DNA of 64,000 bases from Candidatus Giovannonibacteria bacterium RIFCSPHIGHO2_01_FULL_45_24 (GTDB lineage: Bacteria > Patescibacteriota > Minisyncoccia > UBA11713 > 2-01-FULL-45-33), in assembly GCA_001778495.1 (NCBI GenBank), contig MFHE01000007.1, positions 3,996 through 67,995 on the forward strand. The letters are read 5' to 3'. Positions within the stretch are counted from its first letter, which is position 1; each line of letters starts with the position of its first letter. Below are positions 19,468 to 30,257 of this stretch, piece after piece. A program made the translations under genes and the position numbers. The notes under the pieces are model-generated. The model was not told the DNA's origin. It was given only the letters and a program-made list of their open reading frames with translations, and searched no databases.

Positions 19468-20931
19468 TTAATCTGCTGTTTTTATGTGAAGTTCTCTAAG
19501 CTGCTTTTTTGAAATCTCCGAGGGCGAGTCCATCATCAGATCCCGACCGTCGCCGGTTTTCGGAAACGCGATCACCTCGCGGATGCTTGGCTCCTGCTCC
19601 AAAATCATAACTAGCCGGTCAACCCCCGAGGCGATCCCGCCGTGCGGCGGGACGCCGTATTCAAAAGATTCCAAAAGATGTCCGAACTGGCGGCGGATGT
19701 CTTCTTTTTTGTTGCCCATAATCTCAAAAACTTTCTCCAGAATTTCGGGATTATGCTCGCGGATTGACCCCCCGCCGATCTCGCATCCGTTCAGCACAAA
19801 ATCGTATTGATAAGCCATTAATCTGCCTGCATTTTCTTTTCGAATTTCGTGCTCCGGATTTCGGATTTTCGTGAATGGGTGGTGCACAGCATCCCACCTT
19901 TTCTCCGCGTCTTTCCATTCAAACATCGGAAAATCCACGATAAACGCGAAGGCAAGCTCATTAGGGTTATTCTTGTCTTTCCGCAAATCCGGCTTGTCCG
20001 TGCCGTATTTGTCCATCGCCTCTTTGCAAGTAAGCCGCGGGAACGGCCTTTGGGAGATTTTTTTATCCGGATAAAGCGTTTCAATAATGTCTGCGTAAAG
20101 TTCTTCGGTAAGAGCCAAAATTTCTTCCTGGCTCGCGAAGCTCATTTCCAAATCAAGTTGAGTGAATTCCGGCTGGCGGTCGCCTCTCGTATCCTCGTCC
20201 CTGAAACATCTTGCTATCTGAAAATATCTCTCAATCCCGGCAACCATCAAAAGCTGTTTATATTGCTGGGGAGATTGCGGAAGCGCGTAAAACTTTCCCG
20301 GATGAAGCCGCGACGGGACCACATAATCTCTCGCGCCTTCAGGAGTAGACTTTGTCAAAATCGGCGTTTCAATTTCTATAAAATCTTTTTTATGCAAATA
20401 ATCTCTGATGAAAGAAATTATTTTATCGCGCATCGTTAAATTTTTTAAGAGCCGCGGCCTTCTTAAATCCAAATAGCGGTATTTCAGGCGATTGTCCTCG
20501 CCTATCTCACGGCCGTCGCTTAAAACGTCGAACGGGGACGTTTTGGCTTCACTTAAAATCTTTAATCTGGTTGCCTGTATTTCAATTTTGCCGGTAGCTA
20601 ATTCTAGATTTTCCATACCCTTTGGGCGCTCTTTAACTATTCCATCGATTTCAACCACCCATTCTGGACGCAATTTATCAGCTAAAACAAAATCGCGGGA
20701 GATATCCGGAATTTTAGTCAGCTCTCCCGAAGACGGCATTCCTGAAAAAACAACCTGCACAACCCCCCATCTGTCCCGAAGGTCAATAAAAATAATCTTG
20801 CCGTGGTCGCGCCTCCCAGCCACCCAGCCCATCAACGTAATCTCCTCGCCTATTTTATTTACCGCGTCTTTGGCCAGAGTGCGCATGTTGATAAGCATAG
20901 CATAATCAGAGCGCGCTAAGAAATTGCTCAT
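19468..20931 (-). CDS. aspS: Aspartyl-tRNA synthetase (bacterial-type core, no GAD insertion)
   Basis: Contains FRDEDTRGDRQPEFTQLDLEMSF, GGGSIREH and GIASGVDRL. The likely true start is the internal MLINMRT or MRT, which would remove the overlap with the kinase gene. Confidence 0.95.
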   Translation of the reverse strand: MSNFLARSDYAMLINMRTLAKDAVNKIGEEITLMGWVAGRRDHGKIIFIDLRDRWGVVQVVFSGMPSSGELTKIPDISRDFVLADKLRPEWVVEIDGIVKERPKGMENLELATGKIEIQATRLKILSEAKTSPFDVLSDGREIGEDNRLKYRYLDLRRPRLLKNLTMRDKIISFIRDYLHKKDFIEIETPILTKSTPEGARDYVVPSRLHPGKFYALPQSPQQYKQLLMVAGIERYFQIARCFRDEDTRGDRQPEFTQLDLEMSFASQEEILALTEELYADIIETLYPDKKISQRPFPRLTCKEAMDKYGTDKPDLRKDKNNPNELAFAFIVDFPMFEWKDAEKRWDAVHHPFTKIRNPEHEIRKENAGRLMAYQYDFVLNGCEIGGGSIREHNPEILEKVFEIMGNKKEDIRRQFGHLLESFEYGVPPHGGIASGVDRLVMILEQEPSIREVIAFPKTGDGRDLMMDSPSEISKKQLRELHIKTAD

Positions 20932-22576
20932 TGTCCTCTTGAAAATCGTATCTGACAGGCAGCTCCACGAAAAACGTGCTTCCTTTGCCTAGACCCTGCG
21001 ACTCCGCCCAAATCCGGCCTCTGTGGTCGTCAATGATTTTTTTGACGAAATAAAGACCTATGCCCATGCCGTCGGGCCGCTCCTTTTTGGCTATCTCCGT
21101 GCGGCCGAATTTTTGAAAAAGCCGCGGCATCTCGTCTCCGGGCATGCCGAAGCCCCTGTCGGCCACCGCCAGCAGCATGCTTTTGGCTTTGGGCGTTAAA
21201 GTCACGACAATCGGCCCGATTTCTGAATATTTAAACGCGTTATCCAACAAATTTATAACGACTTCGCGCAGCTTATCGGCGTCTCCATATACGCTGAAAG
21301 TCCTATTATTCTTATTTACAAATTCTACAGCAATACTCTTCCCGTCGGACACCTGCTTAAACTCTTTCACGACTTCCTCAATAATATTGTCAAAATAAAT
21401 CTTTTTAAATTCGTATTTTAACCTGCCGGACTCAATCCGGGAAAGGTCCAAGAGTTCCGACACCAATTTCGTCAAATTATTGGCGGCCGCGAAAACTTTC
21501 CACATCGGCGCAAGAGCTTTTTTGCTTATTTCTCCGAAAGTCCCTTCTATGAGCATGGAGGTATAGCCCTTAATCACGGTGAGCGGAGTTCTTAACTGAT
21601 GCCCCGCCAGCGAAATAAACTCCGATTTCGCCTCGTCAAGCTTCCGCAATTTCTCGTTAACCGCCTCCAAATCCTTGGCCAATTTCTCAATTTCTTCGCG
21701 CGATTTAATTTCCTGCAACACGCTGCGAACTAGCAAGATGCCAAAAACAATGATGATCGCAAAGACAAATATATCAATGACCGCTTCGTTTAAAGACGGG
21801 GCCACAAAAATTTTAGAGAATAAAACTATCCAAAGTATTGCAACAATGGCTTCGGCAGCGAAAACTTTGGTGTTGAAAAGGCGATGTTTTACGATGGCGT
21901 AAGCGGTCATACCAAAAAATATCATTGTGTAAAGCGGCGCGAACAACAAAAATCTCCCCGAGTTAAAAAAAATAATTGGGACGAGTATAGTAGCTATTAT
22001 TAAAGTGAGCATTAAAAGCATCCCTGCGCACACCAATTTAAGCTGCTGTCTTTCTTGGCCGGCGGAATTTTTGAATTTTTTAAACAAATAGTATACCGCC
22101 AACGCGCTGAATAAAGTTGATACTACGGCGAATGGCACCAATCCTGCGCCTGGCCTCAACCGCACCGCCCCTTCCACAAATTCTGCTTCCACAAAAGCAT
22201 AGGGAGAAATGTTTAAAACCAGCATGATCAGAGTAGAAATAATCACCAAGACAAATGCCGGCTTATTCAACCGTATTTTATCTGCAGGGAAAGTGTGGGC
22301 TAGCATAAAAAAAAGTGCGCTCATAAGAGCGGCAAAAAAAATCCCCAAGCGCGAAAGCAATAAGACACTTGAAGAAAATTCCGGCGAGCGAACTGCGTAA
22401 GTTATCGCCAGCCATATCATGGTGGATAAATTCAGCAAGGCGAAAATTTTATTTGTTGCGCTTTTAGGATTGCTGCGGCTGACCAAAACTATTAAAAGCG
22501 CGTCAACGACAACGACAATAAGGAATATAATGAGATCTAAAGAAAATATATACAGCTGCGTTGCCAATGTATTCAT
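20906..22576 (-). CDS. Sensor histidine kinase with polytopic N-terminal domain
   Basis: 556 aa with roughly 8 hydrophobic helices. H-box SLAGHQLRTPLTVIKGY and HATPase motifs (DNAFKY, DRGFGM, GMGIGL). No response regulator gene is adjacent. Confidence 0.85.
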   Translation of the reverse strand: MNTLATQLYIFSLDLIIFLIVVVVDALLIVLVSRSNPKSATNKIFALLNLSTMIWLAITYAVRSPEFSSSVLLLSRLGIFFAALMSALFFMLAHTFPADKIRLNKPAFVLVIISTLIMLVLNISPYAFVEAEFVEGAVRLRPGAGLVPFAVVSTLFSALAVYYLFKKFKNSAGQERQQLKLVCAGMLLMLTLIIATILVPIIFFNSGRFLLFAPLYTMIFFGMTAYAIVKHRLFNTKVFAAEAIVAILWIVLFSKIFVAPSLNEAVIDIFVFAIIIVFGILLVRSVLQEIKSREEIEKLAKDLEAVNEKLRKLDEAKSEFISLAGHQLRTPLTVIKGYTSMLIEGTFGEISKKALAPMWKVFAAANNLTKLVSELLDLSRIESGRLKYEFKKIYFDNIIEEVVKEFKQVSDGKSIAVEFVNKNNRTFSVYGDADKLREVVINLLDNAFKYSEIGPIVVTLTPKAKSMLLAVADRGFGMPGDEMPRLFQKFGRTEIAKKERPDGMGIGLYFVKKIIDDHRGRIWAESQGLGKGSTFFVELPVRYDFQEDNEQFLSAL

Positions 22577-23637
22577 CTCTTTTCTGTAAGCATGGAAAGC
22601 TCTGGATATACGCGCGAAGAACGGGCGCTTGGCTCGCCATCGCTCCCGATTCTAAAAAGCATGGAAATTGTGCCCGAAGAAACGCCAAGTGCGTTTTGAA
22701 TTTCAAAATAAGTTTTTTTTACGGCTTCATTGTGGGCTTTTGAAAGAGTCGCCGTATCACCGGAAAAAACGCGTTGCGCCAAATAAATCACCCCGGCAAA
22801 CGGGTGCATGCTTAATCCCATTTTTGCGCTTTCAAGCCATATTCTTTGAAAAACCCTCCCGGCGGCAATAAAATCTTTATCCGTGTCCGCCGTGATAATC
22901 GCCCCGAAAGCCGCCCCCGAAGAATATATTTTTGAGTTTTCTTTCGCTATAAACCTTGAAAGGCCTAGGATGTTAAGGGCGCTGGAGACGCTCCAAAAAC
23001 GGAGCAGTTTGAACATTAATAATTGCAACGGCTTAAGTTCAAATGTTTTGATATACAGCCCGGACCGTTCGCGCAGTTCTTCTTGCTCCGTCCAGCGCAC
23101 GTGATTAAAAAAATATGCGTGCAAAGCGCGGTGTTCCAATATAATCCGCTCCGCCAAACTCACCGCCCGGGCAAGCGCTTCCCGCTTGGGCCTTTCCTCC
23201 GCAAGAATAAATTTAACCCCGAATTCTTTGGCGGTTTCCATAAAAATATTTTTTTGTTCCGCGGTAAGCGGTGTATCGGCGTACGGCTTACGATTAGTCG
23301 CCCGCGAAAAAATGCAAGGATAAAGAGGGTTATTTTTCGGAGCAGACGAGCTAAACGCGATTTCCGCGACTAAATTCGGGTCTCCGCCTGGAAACAACGA
23401 AATCTGCGTGGAGTAGCCGTGCGTTTCCGAAGCAATGATAACATTTTCAATAAGCGCGCCGTGCGCCACGTACGCGCCGCGCTGGCGGAAATTAAAAACC
23501 GGATTATCTTTATCAGGAAGATTGAAAATACAAAGAGTGTTATCGTTTTTTAATAAAAACCGCCAAGGCTGCGAGTTGTCGCCGGAAGGGGCGCGCACCG
23601 CGGCTTTGATAATATTATTTATGATTTCTGTTGGCAT
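22573..23637 (-). CDS. Acg/Rv2032-type two-lobed nitroreductase-family protein
   Basis: 354 aa. N-terminal AAVRAPSGDNSQPWRFLL motif, with size and layout like the Acg-family putative FMN oxidoreductases. The stop overlaps the kinase start by 4 nt. Confidence 0.8.
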   Translation of the reverse strand: MPTEIINNIIKAAVRAPSGDNSQPWRFLLKNDNTLCIFNLPDKDNPVFNFRQRGAYVAHGALIENVIIASETHGYSTQISLFPGGDPNLVAEIAFSSSAPKNNPLYPCIFSRATNRKPYADTPLTAEQKNIFMETAKEFGVKFILAEERPKREALARAVSLAERIILEHRALHAYFFNHVRWTEQEELRERSGLYIKTFELKPLQLLMFKLLRFWSVSSALNILGLSRFIAKENSKIYSSGAAFGAIITADTDKDFIAAGRVFQRIWLESAKMGLSMHPFAGVIYLAQRVFSGDTATLSKAHNEAVKKTYFEIQNALGVSSGTISMLFRIGSDGEPSARSSRVYPELSMLTEKR

Positions 23638-23643
23638 ATTTGT

Positions 23644-24624
23644 TTATATTCTCATCGAAACACATTTTAGCCCGGCTGCTTTAATCAATTTCAATATCGA
23701 TCTGTTCCAATCGGATATTTTAGTTAATTTAAGCTCCGGCCCGTCCGCAACATTTTTATCTATGACGGCGCGCAATTTTTCTCTTGTAAGATCAAACCCT
23801 TTTATTTTACCATTTTTGGAAATAAAATCGCCAAGCCTCCTTAGATTCAGCGTGGATTTTGGCAGAGCTTTTTCCTTTACAATTTTTCTTAAAAGAGACA
23901 AAAGCTGGGCTTTATCCAAAAAATAACTCGGGAATTTATAAGTATAAATATTTCTGTCTATTTTAATTGAGTTTTTACCGATATGGAGAGTCTTGTACGA
24001 CTGAGTAAAGTGCGGAGAGATTTTGATTCCGCCCTTTTTAATCGTCAGCGCGTCTGCTATAAGCTTCTTGCTTATAATCCCTGTAGCATATTTAAAGGGC
24101 AATTTTCTTTTAAAACTATCCAGCATAAATGTGTAGGATATAATCGCAAAACAAATTGCTGTATATTTGTGCCGCGTGTATAACGGGACACCGCACATTC
24201 TGGAAGTGGAAACTATGTGTTTCCAAAAGGATTTCCGTCCTCCAAAAAGTTTCTTGCGCGCTATGACTGACAGCGACCTGCCGTTGGAATAGTATATTTC
24301 AATCTCGCCGCCGCCTAAGGGCTTCCCGTCATTGGGAGTAAATCTGAAGCTTAGCCATTCTTCATAAGCTCCTTTTTTGGCCCTAACCAAATAGATGGCG
24401 GATTTGCCGTCGTATCTATCAATCAGCGGCCTTTTGCCATACCTGTAATAAGACCTGCGCAAAATTAAAAGTATTTTACGCAGCTTTTTATCTAGCCAGC
24501 GAGAGTTATGCAAGTCTTTGGCTTTATACGCGCTGAAGGAAACTCCCCTTGCGTTGCAGAAAAAATCCGGCTTTGTAAGGCCGCGCGATATGCTTTTTAC
24601 TTTATTTAAATAGCGATCCTGCAT
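23644..24624 (-). CDS. Orphan Lys/Arg-rich 326-aa protein inside the E1-nitroreductase operon
   Basis: Long ORF overlapped by 19 nt with the upstream E1-like gene. By eye there is only a weak resemblance to FeeM/LuxI-like GNAT acyltransferases (RYDGKSAIYLV...WLSFRF...VSTSRMCG). Confidence 0.6.
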   Translation of the reverse strand: MQDRYLNKVKSISRGLTKPDFFCNARGVSFSAYKAKDLHNSRWLDKKLRKILLILRRSYYRYGKRPLIDRYDGKSAIYLVRAKKGAYEEWLSFRFTPNDGKPLGGGEIEIYYSNGRSLSVIARKKLFGGRKSFWKHIVSTSRMCGVPLYTRHKYTAICFAIISYTFMLDSFKRKLPFKYATGIISKKLIADALTIKKGGIKISPHFTQSYKTLHIGKNSIKIDRNIYTYKFPSYFLDKAQLLSLLRKIVKEKALPKSTLNLRRLGDFISKNGKIKGFDLTREKLRAVIDKNVADGPELKLTKISDWNRSILKLIKAAGLKCVSMRI

Positions 24625-25643
24625 AACTCTTCTAGATTAAGCTTATATTTGCCAGAGGCCAGGTTTTCTTTGTTGGCTATTAATCTCACGGCGCGAGCTA
24701 CGGCCGCTCCGCTTATTTTCGCCCCAGTAGCAAGCTGGGAAACTCCCGATAAAGTTTTTCCAATTTCGGCCAAAGATATTTTCAATCTTTCAACTAGATA
24801 GTCAGCGCCGATTATTTTTATTGCCATCTCAACCCATTGTCGCCTGCTCAAACCAGCCAAATCCTCAATTTTTAAATTGCCCAAAAGTCCATGGAATGGC
24901 GGGTAATTTCGGTCCAGATCATACCGCTCAACGTCAAGTATCACGCCTTCTCCGTTATCAGTTGCCATTAAAATTGGTATTCCATTTTTAGCACAAATAA
25001 TTCTTGATAAAAATTTCATTTCCAAATCGTCCATCTCGTCAATAAAAATATCCAGTTTCGGCTCGCCCGATATAAATTCCTCTATATTATTTTTATTGAT
25101 TCCTCCATCCAAACAATATATTTCCGCGAAAGGGTCTAGCTCCCATATTTGTTTCGCGGTAATTTCCGTCTTCTCGCTGCCAACATCAAGCAAGGTTGCT
25201 TTTATGCGATTAAGGTTAGTCAGTTCTACAACGTCCGGGTCTGCGATCTTTAAAATTTTAGGGCCACCGGTGCCGCTTAGAACTTCGGCGATGGCGGAGC
25301 CGACGGATAATCCGGCGGTGCCGATTTTGACGTTGCGGTAATTTCTTTGCTCGTCTTCGGTGATAATATTGCGATTGCGCGCGGTGCGCAGTTTAAAATA
25401 GAGTTCCTCCGGCAAAGTATGCACAACGGCGTTTTTCCATGGATAGTAAATCCAAACACCCTTGATGCCGTGATTTTTTAAAAAATCTTCCAGGGGCGCC
25501 TTGGCCTCGGGCATGCTCTTTTTCAGGTTAGGACGTTCTACAAAAAAAAGCTCCTCCAGCGCGCCGGAAAATGCGTCAATCTCTTTCGCTCCCGCCGGGG
25601 TTTCTTCTTGACTATTAAAAACTTTGGGCTTCTCTAAAGCCAT
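24606..25643 (-). CDS. ThiF/MoeB/E1-like adenylyltransferase, Rv1355c(MoeY)-N-terminal type
   Basis: 345 aa. WIYYPWKNAVVHTLPEELYFKLRTARNRNIIT, Rossmann loop VKIGTAGLSVGSAIAEVL, ADPDVVELTNLNR, and DEMDDLEMK. Confidence 0.8.
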   Translation of the reverse strand: MALEKPKVFNSQEETPAGAKEIDAFSGALEELFFVERPNLKKSMPEAKAPLEDFLKNHGIKGVWIYYPWKNAVVHTLPEELYFKLRTARNRNIITEDEQRNYRNVKIGTAGLSVGSAIAEVLSGTGGPKILKIADPDVVELTNLNRIKATLLDVGSEKTEITAKQIWELDPFAEIYCLDGGINKNNIEEFISGEPKLDIFIDEMDDLEMKFLSRIICAKNGIPILMATDNGEGVILDVERYDLDRNYPPFHGLLGNLKIEDLAGLSRRQWVEMAIKIIGADYLVERLKISLAEIGKTLSGVSQLATGAKISGAAVARAVRLIANKENLASGKYKLNLEELCRIAI

Positions 25644-25681
25644 ACAGCTTTATTTTAGCATAATTTTTAATGTAGCAAAAC

Positions 25682-25709
25682 AAAAAAAGCCCCCGAAGGT
25701 CAAGGGGGC
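25682..25709 (-). terminator. Intrinsic terminator of the traT-like gene
   Basis: On the minus strand this reads GCCCCCttgaccttcGGGGGC followed by ttttttt. It lies directly after the stop at 25735. Confidence 0.75.
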
Positions 25710-25734
25710 ATGCCGGGAACAAGCTTGCTTGCGT

Positions 25735-26490
25735 TTAGTTGAGCATCCCGGCGATGCTCTCCGTGATTCGCCTGATAAGAGCTGGCTTGGCCGTCTCAAA
25801 ATCCAAATTAACTTGGGTGGCTGTTGCGCTCAAACGGTTGCGGTATATAAGCCGATCGCTGTCGTAAGCGCCGGTATCCTGCTGAACGCTACTGCCCGTG
25901 CCCTGCTGGATTCTGGCTGTTTGTCTTTCAGTCACGGATCGCCCGGTCTTTTCTGATATTTGAATGTCGACGATAACTGCGTACACAACTTTCTTAACCA
26001 GCTCCCCTGCAATCCATTCTGCCGCCTGACCAATCGCGCCGCCGATGAAACCGCCCACAAAAGGTGCGTTGGGGCTATTACTCGCCAACCCTCCGATAAT
26101 TGCGCCGGCACCGGCGCCGAGAATTGGTCCGCCGTAGCTGGCATGCATCGCTTCCTGAATCGCCGGCGTGGAAGCGTCTCCCAAATAGCGAACATTTGAC
26201 TGAAGCCAGATATTCGCCTCTTCCGGGTCGCTTACCACTTTGTAGCCCTTGGCGTTCATCAGTCCAGCTAAATCGCTAAGTTTAACGTCCATCCCGCTGG
26301 TGTCTCCGAGCTCTATCCAGACGATTTTTTGAGACGCCGGAATCGGCTTCCTAAACACCGTCTCTGCTAGCCGCGCTTGGACGCTTAAATCCTTGTAGCG
26401 TAGCGCCGTAGACATAGCAGCGCAACCGCTCACAAGCAACGCATAAGCCGTCAACGCAAAAACCAACAAAAACCATTTCCATCGCTTCAT
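25735..26490 (-). CDS. traT: TraT-like surface-exclusion/complement-resistance lipoprotein
   Basis: 251 aa. Lipobox LLVSGCAAMSTAL, Gly-rich middle, VDIQISEKT, and C-terminal VNLDFETAKPALIRRITESIAGML; it aligns by eye along its whole length with F-plasmid TraT. Strong SD (AAGGAGGG). Visibly GC-richer than its neighbours. Confidence 0.8.
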   Translation of the reverse strand: MKRWKWFLLVFALTAYALLVSGCAAMSTALRYKDLSVQARLAETVFRKPIPASQKIVWIELGDTSGMDVKLSDLAGLMNAKGYKVVSDPEEANIWLQSNVRYLGDASTPAIQEAMHASYGGPILGAGAGAIIGGLASNSPNAPFVGGFIGGAIGQAAEWIAGELVKKVVYAVIVDIQISEKTGRSVTERQTARIQQGTGSSVQQDTGAYDSDRLIYRNRLSATATQVNLDFETAKPALIRRITESIAGMLN

Positions 26491-26552
26491 TTTTCGGCCC
26501 TCCTTTTCTATAAATACTCTCTAAATACACCTTAGCACAAGCTGCCCGGATA

Positions 26553-26581
26553 TTGCAAGGGCCGCAAAAATCGTGTAGAAT
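26553..26581 (+). promoter_or_regulatory. Sigma70-like promoter for tRNA-Lys
   Basis: TTGCAA-N17-TAGAAT, ending 26 nt before the tRNA 5' end. Confidence 0.5.
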
Positions 26582-26607
26582 TAGTTAAATCCGCCCAAAT
26601 TAAACAA

Positions 26608-26680
26608 CCGCCCATAGCTCAATTGGCAGAGCAGCTCCCTTTTAAGGAGAAGGTTCCAGGTTCGATTCCTGGTGGGCGGA
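26608..26680 (+). tRNA. tRNA-Lys (anticodon UUU)
   Basis: Hand-folded cloverleaf. Acceptor CCGCCCA/TGGGCGG, D arm GCTC-AATTGGCA-GAGC, anticodon loop CTTTTAA, T arm CCAGG-TTCGATT-CCTGG, discriminator A. CCA is not encoded. Confidence 0.9.
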
Positions 26681-26708
26681 CACTTTAGAAATATGCTAAA
26701 ATAAAATC

Positions 26709-26843
26709 ATGAAAAAGCGCGTAAGAAAAGGGGCGCGGTATTTTCACGGCGATGATTTAACCAAAAAAGCGCTGGATAGAAAGCGCCGCTCCAAAACCGA
26801 AAAATGGGAGCGCCGCCCGCTGCGCTCCCGCAAGGCCCGCTAA
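26709..26843 (+). CDS. Possible 44-aa highly basic peptide
   Basis: ATG..TAA ORF encoding MKKRVRKGARYFHGDDLTKKALDRKRRSKTEKWERRPLRSRKAR. It fills an otherwise empty gap, has no SD, and is below the ORF-track cutoff. Confidence 0.25.
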   Translation: MKKRVRKGARYFHGDDLTKKALDRKRRSKTEKWERRPLRSRKAR

Positions 26844-26844
26844 A

Positions 26845-27312
26845 TTAAAGAAAAAGAACGCCGAAGATGGGGAGGATAAACCACAATTTGGCGTAGGCGG
26901 AAGAGGCAAAAACTTGCAGAACCCACGGCGAGAGGTTTAAGATGTTGTTTTTTATAACGTCTTCCGGAGCAAGTTTTATTATAGACGCGACAAAAAATCC
27001 GGCGGCTAAAATTGATAAAACCAAAATCTCCCACCAAAGCCCGCCGTAATACCCCGCCGCGCCCCTGAAAGAGCGTATTAAAAAGAGCGCAAGCAACAAA
27101 AGAAGCGCCAGAAAAATTCCGGCGCGGAACATAAAAATCTCATCAATTGGGATGTAAGGGAAAATAACAAGCAGGGCATAGAGAGCCAAAATTCCCAAAG
27201 CCATCTTTTTCTTTCCGCCGGAAATGCCCCAAAAAAATCCAGCGGCCACCAGCATAAACACCAAAACGGCGTCCCAAGCCGGGTTTTTAATTAAAGACAA
27301 AAAAGATTGCAT
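26845..27312 (-). CDS. Hypothetical polytopic membrane protein
   Basis: 155 aa with 4-5 hydrophobic helices. No family recognised. Confidence 0.55.
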   Translation of the reverse strand: MQSFLSLIKNPAWDAVLVFMLVAAGFFWGISGGKKKMALGILALYALLVIFPYIPIDEIFMFRAGIFLALLLLLALFLIRSFRGAAGYYGGLWWEILVLSILAAGFFVASIIKLAPEDVIKNNILNLSPWVLQVFASSAYAKLWFILPIFGVLFL

Positions 27313-27319
27313 AAAGATA

Positions 27320-28387
27320 TTATAATCCTTCTTTCTCCAAATCCGAAAGGAGTTTTTTCGCCTGATGCGAAAGTTTTTTCGGAAGTTTTTGGAATAGCCG
27401 AATTAGAAGATCTCCTCTACTCCCTCTCATTTTCGGCACCCCCTTCCCGCGCAATCTTAGAAAATCGCCTGATTTTGAAAGCTCCGGAACGCACACTAAA
27501 ATTTTTCCTTCCAACGTCTCTATGATTTCTTCCCCTCCCAAAAGCATGCTCGATACCGGCAAATACAAGTCCGTTAAAATATCAAGCCCTTCGCGGCGGA
27601 AAGCATGGTGCGGCAAAACGCGAATCCGGACGTAAAGGTCTCCCGCCTGCCCTTTAGCGACTTCTTCTCCCAGCCCGGTAAACTTGATTGCCTCGCCGTC
27701 GCGGATTCCCGCGGGGATATCTATGTCAATCGTCTCCGATTTTTTTAAAACTCCGGAGCCGCGGCAATGCCTGCAAATTTTCTCCGGCGCCTCCCCGCGC
27801 CCGCGGCAGAGTGTGCACTCCGAAAGCGCCGTAAAGGAGCCGAAGAGCGAGCGGCGCGTCTCGCGCACGGTCCCCGTGCCTCCGCAGGTCTGGCATTTTT
27901 TGAGCGAACTTCCTGGCTCCGCGCCGAGACCTTTACAAATTTCGCACTTTTTTGATTTTTCAATAACCACGCTTCTTCGCCCGCCGAAAACCGACTCTCT
28001 AAACGAAATGTCAATGCCCAAAGAAATATCACTGCCGCGTTTTGCTCTCCGCCATTGTCCGCCTCTGGCGGAGAATCCTCCTAGACCGCCCAAAAAATCC
28101 TCGAAGATGTCGCCTAAATCTGCGCCAAATCCCTGCCCGAAGTCAAAACCCTCAAACCCTTCGCCTGGCCCCTGCCCGGAAAAAGCATGGCCGAATCTGT
28201 CGTATTGGGTGCGCTTCTGTTCGTCTCCTAAAATCTGGTAGGCCTCGTTTATTTCCTTGAATTTTTTTTCATCCCCCCCTTTTTTATCCGGATGATGCTG
28301 GTGCGCCAGCTTTCTGTAGGCGCGCTTAACTTCCTCCGCCGACGCCCCCTTCTTCACTCCCAAGATGTCATAGTAGTCCTTAGACAT
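27320..28387 (-). CDS. dnaJ: Chaperone DnaJ
   Basis: J-domain DYYDILGV...HHPDK, a G/F region, and four CxxCxGxG zinc-finger repeats. Confidence 0.95.
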
Positions 28388-30257
28388 CTCTGTGCTCGGT
28401 ATCTTTTATGTCAGGACCTTGGCCGTCTTCCGGTTTATTTTTATACATCGCTTCGCCGATTTTGGAGAGGGATTGCGCAAGTTCCGCTTCAGCAGAGCGA
28501 ATTGCCGCAACATCATCTCCGTCTTTGACTTTTTTAAGCGCCTCTATTTTTTGATTGACTTCGTCGTTAATCGTCGCTTCAATTTTACCTGCCTTGCCGG
28601 CAGGCAGGTCTCCGGCATCGCGCAAAGATTTCTCCGCCGTGTAAACCAGCGCGTCCGCTCGGTTTCTGGCCTCAACCAATTCTTTTTTCTTGCTGTCTTC
28701 ATCCGCATGCGCCTCGGCGTCGTTCTTCATGCGCTCTATTTCATCTTTTGAAAGCCCGGTGGACGCTTCAATCCTTATGGATTGCTCTTTATTCGTCGCT
28801 TTATCTTTGGCTTTGACGGACAAAATTCCGTTAGCGTCAATGTCAAAAGAAACTTCAACCTGCGGCATGCCGCGAGGCGCCGGAGGGATGCCGTCCAAAA
28901 TAAATCTGCCCAAAGTTTTATTGTCCGCCGCCATTTCTCTTTCGCCCTGCAAAACATGTATCTCAACGGAGGTCTGATTGTCGGCCGCGGTTGAGAAAAC
29001 CTGCGCGCGCGCGACCGGAACGGTCGTATTTTTTTCAATGACTTTTGTCATCACGCCTCCCAAAGTCTCAATGCCCAAAGAGAGCGGCGTGACATCCAAA
29101 AGCAAAACGTCTTTTACGTCGCCGCGCAAAATTCCGCCCTGCACCGCCGCGCCCACGGCCACGACTTCGTCGGGATTAATGGAAAGGTTGGCTTCCTTCC
29201 CAAAAAGTTTTTTAATCCCCTCTTGAATCGCCGGCATCCTTGTCTGCCCGCCGACCAAGACGATTTCATCAATGTCTTTTAATTCAAACTTGGCCTCGCG
29301 GACGACGTTTTTTGTGATTTCAAAAGATTTATCCAAAAAATCGCGCACCAAATCTTCCAGCTTGGCGCGAGTTAATTTCATAATCAGGTGCCGCGGGCCG
29401 GAGGCGTCGGAAGTGATAAATGGAATATTTAGTTCGGTCTCAAGCGCGGTTGAGAGCTCATGCTTGGCTTTCTCCGCGGCTTCCTTTAGGCGCTGGAGCG
29501 CCAAGACGTCCTTGGTGACATCAACCCCTGATTCTTTTTTAAATTCCGAGGCAATATGCTGAATGATTTTTTGGTCAAAATCGTCGCCGCCCAAGTGGGT
29601 GTCCCCGCCGGTTGCCCGGACTTCAATGGTGTTATCTCCGATTTCAAGCACCGAAAGGTCAAATGTGCCGCCCCCCAAATCGTAAACCACAATCTGTTCG
29701 TTTCTTTTTTTATCAAGCCCGTAGGCGAGCGCGGCCGCCGTGGGCTCGTTTAAAATTCTTTTAACTTTAAATCCGGCGATCTCCCCCGCGGCTTTCGTGG
29801 CCTGGCGCTGCGAATCGTCAAAATACGCCGGCACTGTGATAATTGCTTCCTCAATACGCTCTCCGAGCTTTGCTTCAGTATCGGTTTTTAATTTAGCCAA
29901 AATCATAGCCGAGATTTCCTCCGGCCGATACCATTTCTCGTTGATTTTAACATCAACCCCGCCGTTCTGGGATTCCTTAATCTCGTAAGGCAGGAGGGTT
30001 TTATCGCGTTTAACCTCCGCATCGCTGAATTTCCGCCCAATCAACCGCTTTACCGAAAAAATAGTGTTTTTCGGATTAGTTACGGCCTGCCTTTTCGCTA
30101 AAAGCCCGACTAAGCGCTCGCCGGATTTTGAAAAGGCGACCATTGACGGCGTGGTTCGCGCGCCCTCCGCGTTTTCCAATATTTTCGGGACCCCTCCTTC
30201 CACAATCGCCATCGCCGAGTTGGTCGTCCCCAAATCTATTCCTAGAATTTTTGCCAT
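28380..30257 (-). CDS. dnaK: Chaperone DnaK (Hsp70)
   Basis: 625 aa. [17 protein letters not shown] and [10 protein letters not shown] signatures. Confidence 0.97.

Follow-up and report, generated by a model that had tools for sequence, protein, structure and literature searches.

A TraT-family gene kept beside tRNA-Lys in Giovannonibacteria, cells in which no lipoprotein or outer-membrane machinery was detected

Introduction

TraT is treated as an outer-membrane lipoprotein of Gram-negative bacteria (PMC11733297). In Escherichia coli it forms a decamer that spans the outer membrane; each subunit has a transmembrane hairpin of helices and, at the N-terminus, a lipid carried by its first Cys (PMC11733297). 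For the F-plasmid protein, physical interference that needs no specific partner is the most likely mode of action (Chen et al., PMC12658005). Chromosomal TraTs have been described from seven Gram-negative phyla, in an account that calls surface exclusion Gram-negative-specific (Seddon et al., 2025, PMC11733297). Here we consider a chromosomal traT-family gene in a 64,000-nucleotide stretch (the window) of contig MFHE01000007.1 from Candidatus Giovannonibacteria bacterium RIFCSPHIGHO2_01_FULL_45_24, a member of the Patescibacteria (also called Candidate Phyla Radiation, CPR) in whose genome we find neither the lipoprotein enzymes Lgt and LspA nor BamA, our proxy for an outer membrane.

NCBI automatic annotation already names these proteins TraT, and the presence of the gene is therefore not new in itself. 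A literature search found no paper treating TraT in CPR bacteria, and the word Patescibacteria is absent from the main text of PMC11733297, although a CPR sequence could hide in its supplement or Microreact tree, which lie outside this check. Of interest is that a canonical TraT has long been kept under selection in cells seemingly without an outer membrane or lipoprotein enzymes. Our best explanation taken whole, which combines an intact and selected TraT, a history of import and exchange, and a membrane-anchored shield, seems to us evenly balanced between right and wrong.

Family membership and fold

The gene and its signals, in window coordinates, are as follows.

25735..26490, minus strand: traT-family coding sequence, 251 aa, stop codon included in the span (list of open reading frames, Pfam, PDB and Foldseek)
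26422..26490, minus strand: signal peptide and lipobox, MKRWKWFLLVFALTAYALLVSG-C23 (LLVSG-C23), read from the translation
26498..26505, minus strand: Shine-Dalgarno sequence AAGGAGGG, 7 nt 5' of the ATG, by direct sequence reading
26529..26558, minus strand: candidate traT promoter (TTGCAA, 18 nt, TG-extended TAAGGT), picked out by eye
25680..25706, minus strand: intrinsic-terminator-like hairpin and T run 3' of the traT stop (stem 25706-25690, 7 pairs, tail CTTTTTTTGT)
26608..26681, plus strand: tRNA-Lys(UUU) by ARAGORN, the sole tRNA in the window, divergent from traT

A first-pass annotation made by eye had taken the 251-aa product for a TraT, and that this open reading frame (ORF) is a TraT-family gene, of the chromosomal branch, we now regard as virtually certain. 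Pfam PF05818 (TraT) matches with an E value of 9.8e-54 and 182.8 bits, against a cut-off of 31, aligning residues 34-250 with the whole profile (1-214 of 214), and HMMER places residues 23-250 on chain positions 1-223 of the TraT structure 9fs5 (E 2.2e-34). An AlphaFold2 (AF2) model built from 29 homologues has a mean predicted local distance difference test score (pLDDT) of 74.5; when it is used as the Foldseek query, the top three PDB matches are all TraT decamer entries, with E values of 8.5e-21 to 3.4e-20, template modeling scores of 0.55-0.63, and sequence identities of 31-33%. The predicted fold is that of TraT, comprising the alpha/beta core, the helical membrane hairpin and the long beta-hairpin, and a homodecameric ring would be expected by homology only.

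The likeness to F-plasmid TraT that had been drawn from end to end holds for the family and for the full length of the protein, but not for orthology of the F type. The NCBIfam equivalog for F-like plasmid TraT (NF010291) gives 143.1 bits against a cut-off of 445, a score so far under it that the protein must be called a family member and not an F-type orthologue. Reduced conjugation and serum resistance, the functions of F-plasmid TraT, are putative here.

The translation holds every feature that the first reading had listed, namely SGCAAMST, a Gly-rich centre, VDIQISEKT and the C-terminal VNLDFETAKPAL...IAGML. The parts of a TraT can be recognized in it as well: a signal peptide of the Sec type, the core, a helical hairpin rich in Gly, and a beta-hairpin whose length is as usual. 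The lipobox, LLVSG-C23, has its Cys at +1 after the signal peptide. G22, C23, A24 and A25 are invariant in the 29 aligned TraTs, CPR clade included, and the codons flanking the lipobox Cys vary synonymously among the four CPR traT genes.

The Shine-Dalgarno sequence and the terminator also proved to be as described, as did the 117 nt (26491-26607) that separate the gene from tRNA-Lys. Terminator-like sites in 25400-26900 number 8, versus 3.0 +/- 1.8 in shuffled sequence. The candidate promoter fails a consensus scan, which returns instead a plus-strand site (26553-26581) in keeping with the divergently oriented tRNA-Lys gene. The gene is present in one copy in its genome (hereafter G000). Contigs from three further groundwater runs, possibly of one sampling campaign, match the segment without differing bases and span both the E1-like (ThiF)/traT and the traT/tRNA junctions, and none of them skips traT.

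Distribution and selection

The host genome amounts to 531 kb in 14 contigs, with completeness estimated at 89.8%, bearing out the earlier impression of a reduced genome; it belongs to the Giovannonibacteria, as do the named relatives of the TraT protein and of the loci described below. TraT is rare in this company. Among the 60 nearest genomes it was found in two (one copy partial at a contig end, the other marginal at 29 bits), and among 400 other Patescibacteria no match rose above the Pfam cut-off, the single match seen scoring 21 bits. The window's own order has TraT in 2 of 20 genomes, the window included, and the sister order in 2 of 10 (loci L004 and L005), which makes 4 of 30 for the two orders together. 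The same gene stands at the same locus in three other assemblies. The relatives' loci were found with a 10-row alignment, a 29-row alignment being too diverse for the pattern search; a single-protein pattern scan of genome contigs gave 61 pattern matches, none confirmed, and a scan of metagenome contigs yielded only two distant TraT relatives, at 27-28% identity.

Family-wide, 664 cluster representatives match at E <= 0.001. In a 96-row tree the window TraT and eight close sequences form a clade of nine (support of 99 in the Shimodaira-Hasegawa-like approximate likelihood ratio test), whose closest named outgroups come from Tectomicrobia and Methylomirabilota. The CPR copies are a single clade nested among the TraTs of diderm environmental bacteria, and the simplest reading of this tree would be that a small CPR group acquired the gene once, long ago, from a diderm bacterium.

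How old that import would be is indicated by codon changes. Between the four CPR traT genes, the proportion of synonymous differences (pS) is 0.64-0.80, which is to say saturated, while that of nonsynonymous differences (pN) is 0.14-0.32; where the ratio of the two rates (dN/dS) is computable it lies at ~0.08-0.13. A dN/dS of ~0.1 together with saturated synonymous sites implies that traT has long been maintained by purifying selection, and the saturation between the four copies makes the gene an old, adapted resident and not a fresh import.

A GC content visibly above that of the neighbours had also been noted. The excess is real, traT having 53.9% GC when the 465 ORFs of the genome average 46.7% (it stands at their 97.6th percentile), but as a sign of foreign origin it is weak. 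GC at third codon positions (GC3) is 59.8%, the 89th percentile (z 1.1), and at second positions (GC2) z is 1.76; the excess falls mainly at codon position 2 because the protein is rich in Gly and Ala. The nearby dnaJ and dnaK, at 52.0% and 50.0% GC, are similar to traT. On the strength of the GC3 value and of these neighbours, we rejected GC as a sign of recent transfer. Of the proposed horizontal acquisition, what stands is that traT is alien to the rest of the phylum (0/400), and what falls, by GC3 and the saturated synonymous sites, is a recent import.

A distant TraT-like protein was also seen in another genome of the same class (G033, L003:36-2076), with 29% identity over 163 aa and 28.9 bits to Pfam TraT. 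The protein and its two small neighbours all have lipobox-like N-termini, and Lgt was not detected in G033.

Lipoprotein and envelope enzymes

CPR cells are not known to have an outer membrane. By Pfam search, Lgt was not found in any of nine genomes of the two orders (G000, G001, G002, G005, G008, G009, G013, G455 and G456), and LspA not in any of six genomes of the two orders, the other TraT-bearing genomes included. Profiles of our own, built from CPR sequences and run on six-frame translations of G000 and of the complete same-genus genome G001, found nothing in either, the best E values being 3.8 and 0.18, respectively, for Lgt, and 0.017 and 1.8 for LspA. As a positive control, the same Pfam searches were run on a sample of Patescibacteria, where they recovered Lgt in 146 of 201 genomes and LspA in 39 of 61 (the Lgt tally includes one unpublished genome, on which no claim depends). 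Within the window's class, Lgt is found in 20 of 121 genomes, a low rate beside that of the phylum, which suggests that the classical maturation of lipoproteins has been lost across the lineage. Nor did G000 give a match to BamA/Omp85 (PF01103), while all seven diderm control genomes were positive.

Signal peptidase I is present in G000. A strict lipobox screen of 580 G000 ORFs gave two matches, TraT and a Rossmann-fold false positive, and a permissive screen of the genome gave TraT and one doubtful case. Among 703 ORFs of G001, the sole convincing lipobox protein is a CsgG-like one, to which we return below. The CPR envelope may have a wall and a surface layer (S-layer) outside the membrane, and peptidoglycan genes in the window include murG, ftsW and a D-Ala-D-Ala carboxypeptidase.

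The tRNA-Lys locus

No tra genes keep traT company. Of the 66 window ORFs of at least 90 aa, 43 were scanned; these are housekeeping genes (dnaB, aminoacyl-tRNA synthetases, murG, ftsW, scpAB, dnaKJ-grpE, smc, dnaE and others), and for this scanned set the first-pass statement that the window has no conjugation genes holds good. The neighbours of traT are, accordingly, not tra or type IV secretion genes but housekeeping genes and a set of E1-like, GNAT-like and nitroreductase-like genes. VirB4 (PF03135) was not found in G000. Two VirD4/TrwB-like ATPases are encoded outside the window, and VirD4-type homologues are common in CPR genomes according to a preprint (10.1101/2025.01.22.634366).

G000:C7:69478-71214 (~1.5 kb beyond the window end): VirD4/TrwB-like ATPase, 578 aa, with a treble-clef zinc finger
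G000:C9:7913-10324: VirD4/TrwB-like ATPase, 803 aa

Where traT sits is more telling. In all four CPR loci it lies 61-422 nt from tRNA-Lys(UUU), though in three orientations relative to that gene: divergent in the window and L006, tandem in L004, and convergent in L005. The tRNA-Lys is identical over all 74 nt in the window, G001 and L005. Across related loci the order dnaK, dnaJ, 155-aa membrane protein, tRNA-Lys, variable region, histidine kinase, lysS is kept, and what occupies the variable region in the window is a segment that a same-genus relative has in another form.

21763..26548, no strand: replaceable segment; DNA similarity to same-genus G001 ends at both borders (blastn)
26845..30257, minus strand: conserved flank of 155-aa membrane protein, dnaJ and dnaK; same order in G001, G002, G009, G013 and G015
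24606..25643, minus strand: E1/ThiF-like gene 3' of traT; Pfam ThiF E 1.7e-19; NCBIfam Rv1355c E 2e-87, on profile 63-338 of 722 (N-terminal half)
23644..24624, minus strand: 326-aa protein, possibly a GNAT/FeeM-like N-acyltransferase; Atlas feature matches of 0.92 to GNAT and 0.90 to FeeM clusters, a lead only
22573..23637, minus strand: Acg/nitroreductase-like gene; NCBIfam Rv1355c E 3.4e-53, on profile 374-712 of 722 (C-terminal half)
20906..22576, minus strand: histidine kinase (Pfam HisKA_7TM, HisKA, HATPase_c), its 7TM sensor half inside the variable segment

By blastn, window positions 20000-21762 and 26549-29000 match the complete genome G001 at 82-84%, the similarity resuming at 26549, 59 nt before tRNA-Lys. 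Between these borders the window has 4.8 kb, made up of the kinase sensor half, the nitroreductase-like gene, the 326-aa gene, the E1-like gene and traT, and G001 has 2.9 kb of other genes, a CsgG-family protein and an epimerase-like gene. The empty site that had been envisaged in relatives is thus not what this relative holds, its different cargo taking the place of 21763-26548. The kinase is 57% identical to its G001 counterpart, versus 83-93% for the flanking genes, and the break in DNA similarity at 21762 falls inside the kinase gene, so that its 7TM sensor half must have been replaced along with the cargo. The E1/ThiF-like and nitroreductase-like genes match one half each of Rv1355c, a family in which the two are fused, and between them lies the 326-aa gene, which has no Pfam or NCBIfam match. 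A comparison with 15 related loci turned up none of these three genes, and for the E1-like protein a search of G001 with a single query gave no match, which is not proof of absence.

In other genomes this position is taken by a subtilase, by an Ig-like surface protein of 788 aa, by secreted proteins of no known family, or by an acyltransferase. Two of these alternative cargoes bear on what follows.

L004:2619-3230, L005:5272-5883 and L039:10167-10796: PlsC-type acyltransferase (PF01553), adjoining traT in L004 and L005; L039 is the same locus without traT
L028:6162-6965 (G001:C1:362161-362964): CsgG-family protein, 267 aa (PF03783, E 1.1e-25), next to tRNA-Lys in the position of traT, its N-terminus lipobox-like

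The acyltransferase is absent from G000 by tblastn. CsgG matches 2 of 60 relatives, as rare as TraT; the G001 protein has close homologues at 58-89% identity and no sequence match to the TraT of G000. Taken together, the locus points to a hot spot for the exchange of surface-protein genes beside tRNA-Lys in Giovannonibacteria. No integrase was found among the scanned ORFs of the variable regions, nor any tRNA-derived att-type direct repeat at the segment borders, where the sole match (D3), 20 nt at 80%, is at chance level.

Some smaller features of these loci deserve record. A GIY-YIG nuclease gene lies between tRNA-Lys and traT in L006 (5569-5832), and another adjoins tRNA-Lys in L030 (7740-7985), with homologues elsewhere in G000, on C2 and C6; such nucleases are possible drivers of turnover at the locus. 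ARAGORN calls a 'tRNA-Stop(tta)' at L036:9611-9684, which we rejected as a suppressor tRNA and read as a register slip, because its anticodon loop is identical to that of tRNA-Lys. In the window, an inverted repeat (25649-25670 / 26684-26705, 86% complementary) brackets traT and the tRNA; its arms are two copies of a promoter-like motif, ATGCTAAAAT, a few bases 5' of start codons, and we do not read them as transposon ends. The core of the motif, TGCTAAAAT, occurs 12 times in the genome. Besides 25649-25670 and the 26684 region (plus strand), the motif is seen at ~40169 (minus strand). Its closeness to start codons suggests near-leaderless promoters. One copy precedes an unannotated ORF of 44 very basic residues (26709-26843, plus strand) between tRNA-Lys and the 155-aa gene, for which there is no Pfam match.

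Evolutionary history

The genomes of L004 and L005 belong to one order, and their DnaJ proteins are 68% identical to each other; to the window DnaJ both stand at 54-56%, with L004 at 56%. For TraT the relationship is reversed, the L004 protein being 77% identical to that of the window and 62% to that of L005. A 14-row maximum-likelihood tree accordingly groups L004 TraT with those of the window and L006 (support 100/99), and forcing L004 and L005 together is rejected by the approximately unbiased (AU) test (p 0.0013, log-likelihood difference 27.6). At least one transfer of traT between the two orders would account for this conflict.

We think it probable that the CPR traT genes have a history of this kind, in which one old import from a diderm bacterium would have been followed by exchange between CPR lineages. 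The exchange could have proceeded by recombination for which conserved sequences on either side (tRNA-Lys, dnaJ, kinase) served as anchors, which is likely because traT lies in the same flanked segment and the tRNA is very conserved. It should be said, on the other side, that the groups in the incongruence test were named after the first tree, and that the organismal reference is DnaJ alone together with the order listing.

A purely vertical history we judge unlikely. It would have TraT already present at this locus in the ancestor that both Giovannonibacteria orders share, with loss in most descendants and no exchange between CPR lineages, and would put the odd tree down to rate differences or old paralogues. 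It draws on the fact that traT stands at the same locus in all four genomes, on the saturation of synonymous sites in every pair, on a GC3 typical of the genome, and on the sister pairing of the window and L006, which the AU test does not reject (p 0.18). The position beside tRNA-Lys is indeed constant (4 of 4 copies), and the lineage synteny that would speak against acquisition is to this extent found, but it extends to 4 of 30 genomes, so that strict descent would require loss in the other 26. Nor does vertical descent sit easily with a TraT 77% identical between L004 and the window when DnaJ is at 56% and the 155-aa neighbour at 27%, with the rejection of an L004-L005 TraT clade, or with the three gene/tRNA orientations.

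That traT might be a relic in decay, or might stem from diderm DNA that contaminates the assembly or was joined to it as a chimera, as its oddity for the phylum and its GC above the genome mean could hint, is already refuted as far as sequence evidence reaches: the frame is intact and matched over its full length, dN/dS is ~0.1, the gene lies inside a 79-kb contig syntenic with the complete genome G001, and the same gene and locus recur in three other assemblies and in contigs of other runs.

Possible function

Since neither Lgt, LspA nor BamA is found, this TraT would be unable to follow the E. coli route of lipidation and delivery to an outer membrane. We favor, tentatively and with more doubt than confidence, an alternative mode of anchoring and action that is modelled on the known TraTs. 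Here, Sec would export the protein, which would stay on the outer face of the cytoplasmic membrane. Either an uncleaved signal anchor would hold it, or signal peptidase I would cut it at G-C-A-A, a junction of small residues; the glycine-zipper helical hairpin, inserted from outside, would add anchorage. The resulting topology would be the same as that of F-plasmid TraT in E. coli, in which the short loop of the hairpin faces the periplasm (PMC12658005). The anchored protein would assemble into a ring, and the ring would be a passive obstacle, shielding or stiffening the cell physically against machines that depend on contact, type IV secretion systems, pili and phage among them. The first-pass suggestion that TraT may have been put to a new use here, in surface protection or host contact, may hold.

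Several observations weigh against this account. The E. coli TraT in which the lipidated Cys is changed to Ser (C36S) is no longer detected and gives no exclusion (PMC11733297), so that an unlipidated TraT may not fold or assemble. The invariant Cys of the CPR clade would likewise fit a modification that is still needed better than a mere cleavage site. If the cell does have a wall and S-layer outside the membrane, a ring would be buried and hardly able to shield the surface. The very region that is to insert, the helical hairpin (residues 120-162), has a pLDDT below 50 in the AF2 model. The host genome is only 89.8% complete, and the complete G001, which is without Lgt and LspA, is also without TraT. 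The protein is a predicted product, the match in an RNA run being a single contig that covers the tRNA only and belongs, by its flanks, to another organism.

The same Cys underlies a different possibility, that TraT is lipidated after all, by an enzyme other than Lgt, either through an archaea-like route or by an acyltransferase encoded near traT. Archaea have lipobox proteins and are not known to have Lgt or Lsp. The Cys and its G-C-A-A surroundings are invariant despite overall identities of 55-77% and saturated synonymous change, and the C36S mutant fails in E. coli. A PlsC-type acyltransferase adjoins traT in L004 and L005, the GNAT/FeeM-like lead lies two genes from the window traT, and lipobox-like N-termini occur in the Lgt-less G001 (on the CsgG-like protein) and G033. 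Nevertheless, a dedicated pathway would be almost without substrates (1-2 of 580 ORFs in G000, and about one clear case among 703 in G001), the PlsC-type gene is missing from G000 and is not confined to loci that have traT (L039 has none), and the GNAT assignment is a lead only. We rate this route as rather improbable.

More improbable still, in our view, is that TraT acts on a partner cell, being released at the contact site either to enter a diderm host's outer membrane or to block rival episymbionts there. It would make sense of the fact that TraT and CsgG, both ring proteins of diderm outer membranes, are found one each in sister CPR species at the same locus. According to a preprint, CPR bacteria grow on hosts and widely keep a relaxase-less type IV secretion system (10.1101/2025.01.22.634366); two VirD4-like ATPases are encoded in this genome. 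Set against this, the host, secretion past Sec and a route of delivery would all have to be supposed, and insertion of the E. coli protein needs lipidation and Lol sorting (PMC11733297).

If a canonical TraT has indeed been kept in cells that have neither the membrane nor the enzymes it depends on, these cells would provide a natural test of what TraT needs for folding, anchoring and action, and of whether physical interference is independent of conjugation. The tRNA-Lys hot spot would bear on how ultra-small episymbionts vary their surface, and the scarcity of Lgt in the class (20/121), seen beside orphan lipobox proteins, poses a concrete question in CPR envelope biology. A bolder generalization, to which we lend little credence for now, is that bacteria without an outer membrane, Lgt or LspA select and swap genes for ring lipoproteins at the tRNA-Lys locus, TraT in this genome and a CsgG-like gene in its sister species; this would imply either a new maturation of lipobox proteins or rings at the contact between episymbiont and host, where they might sit in the outer membrane of a diderm host or keep out the type IV machines of rival episymbionts.

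Related systems

Of the described systems, the F/pKpQIL plasmid TraT (PDB 9fs5, 9e2v, 9fsm) has family and fold in common with the window protein over the whole mature length: in both, helix alpha1 comes after the lipobox Cys, the helical hairpin is rich in Gly, and the beta-hairpin is about as long. It differs in context, being encoded in a tra operon, whereas the window traT is chromosomal, in a housekeeping region, in a host without detectable Lgt, LspA or BamA. Closer in setting are the Gram-negative chromosomal TraTs, which are likewise stand-alone genes with variable, unrelated neighbours in divergent lineages (Seddon et al., 2025, PMC11733297); what sets the window TraT apart from them is its CPR host, with no outer-membrane or lipoprotein machinery detected.

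Other proteins share parts of the structure or of the setting. PelC and LptE have a core domain like that of TraT, with Foldseek E values of 6e-4 and ~0.05, respectively, and LptE has been named the closest structural homologue of TraT (PMC12658005), but both are without its transmembrane helical hairpin, its long beta-hairpin, or sequence similarity to it. The CsgG/HfaB-family protein of G001 is of another family again (PF03783), with no sequence match to TraT, and CsgG appears in the Foldseek list for the TraT model at rank 50 (E 0.11); yet in its site beside tRNA-Lys, its lipobox-like N-terminus, its membership in a family of outer-membrane ring lipoproteins, and its rarity, it is the counterpart of TraT in a sister species.

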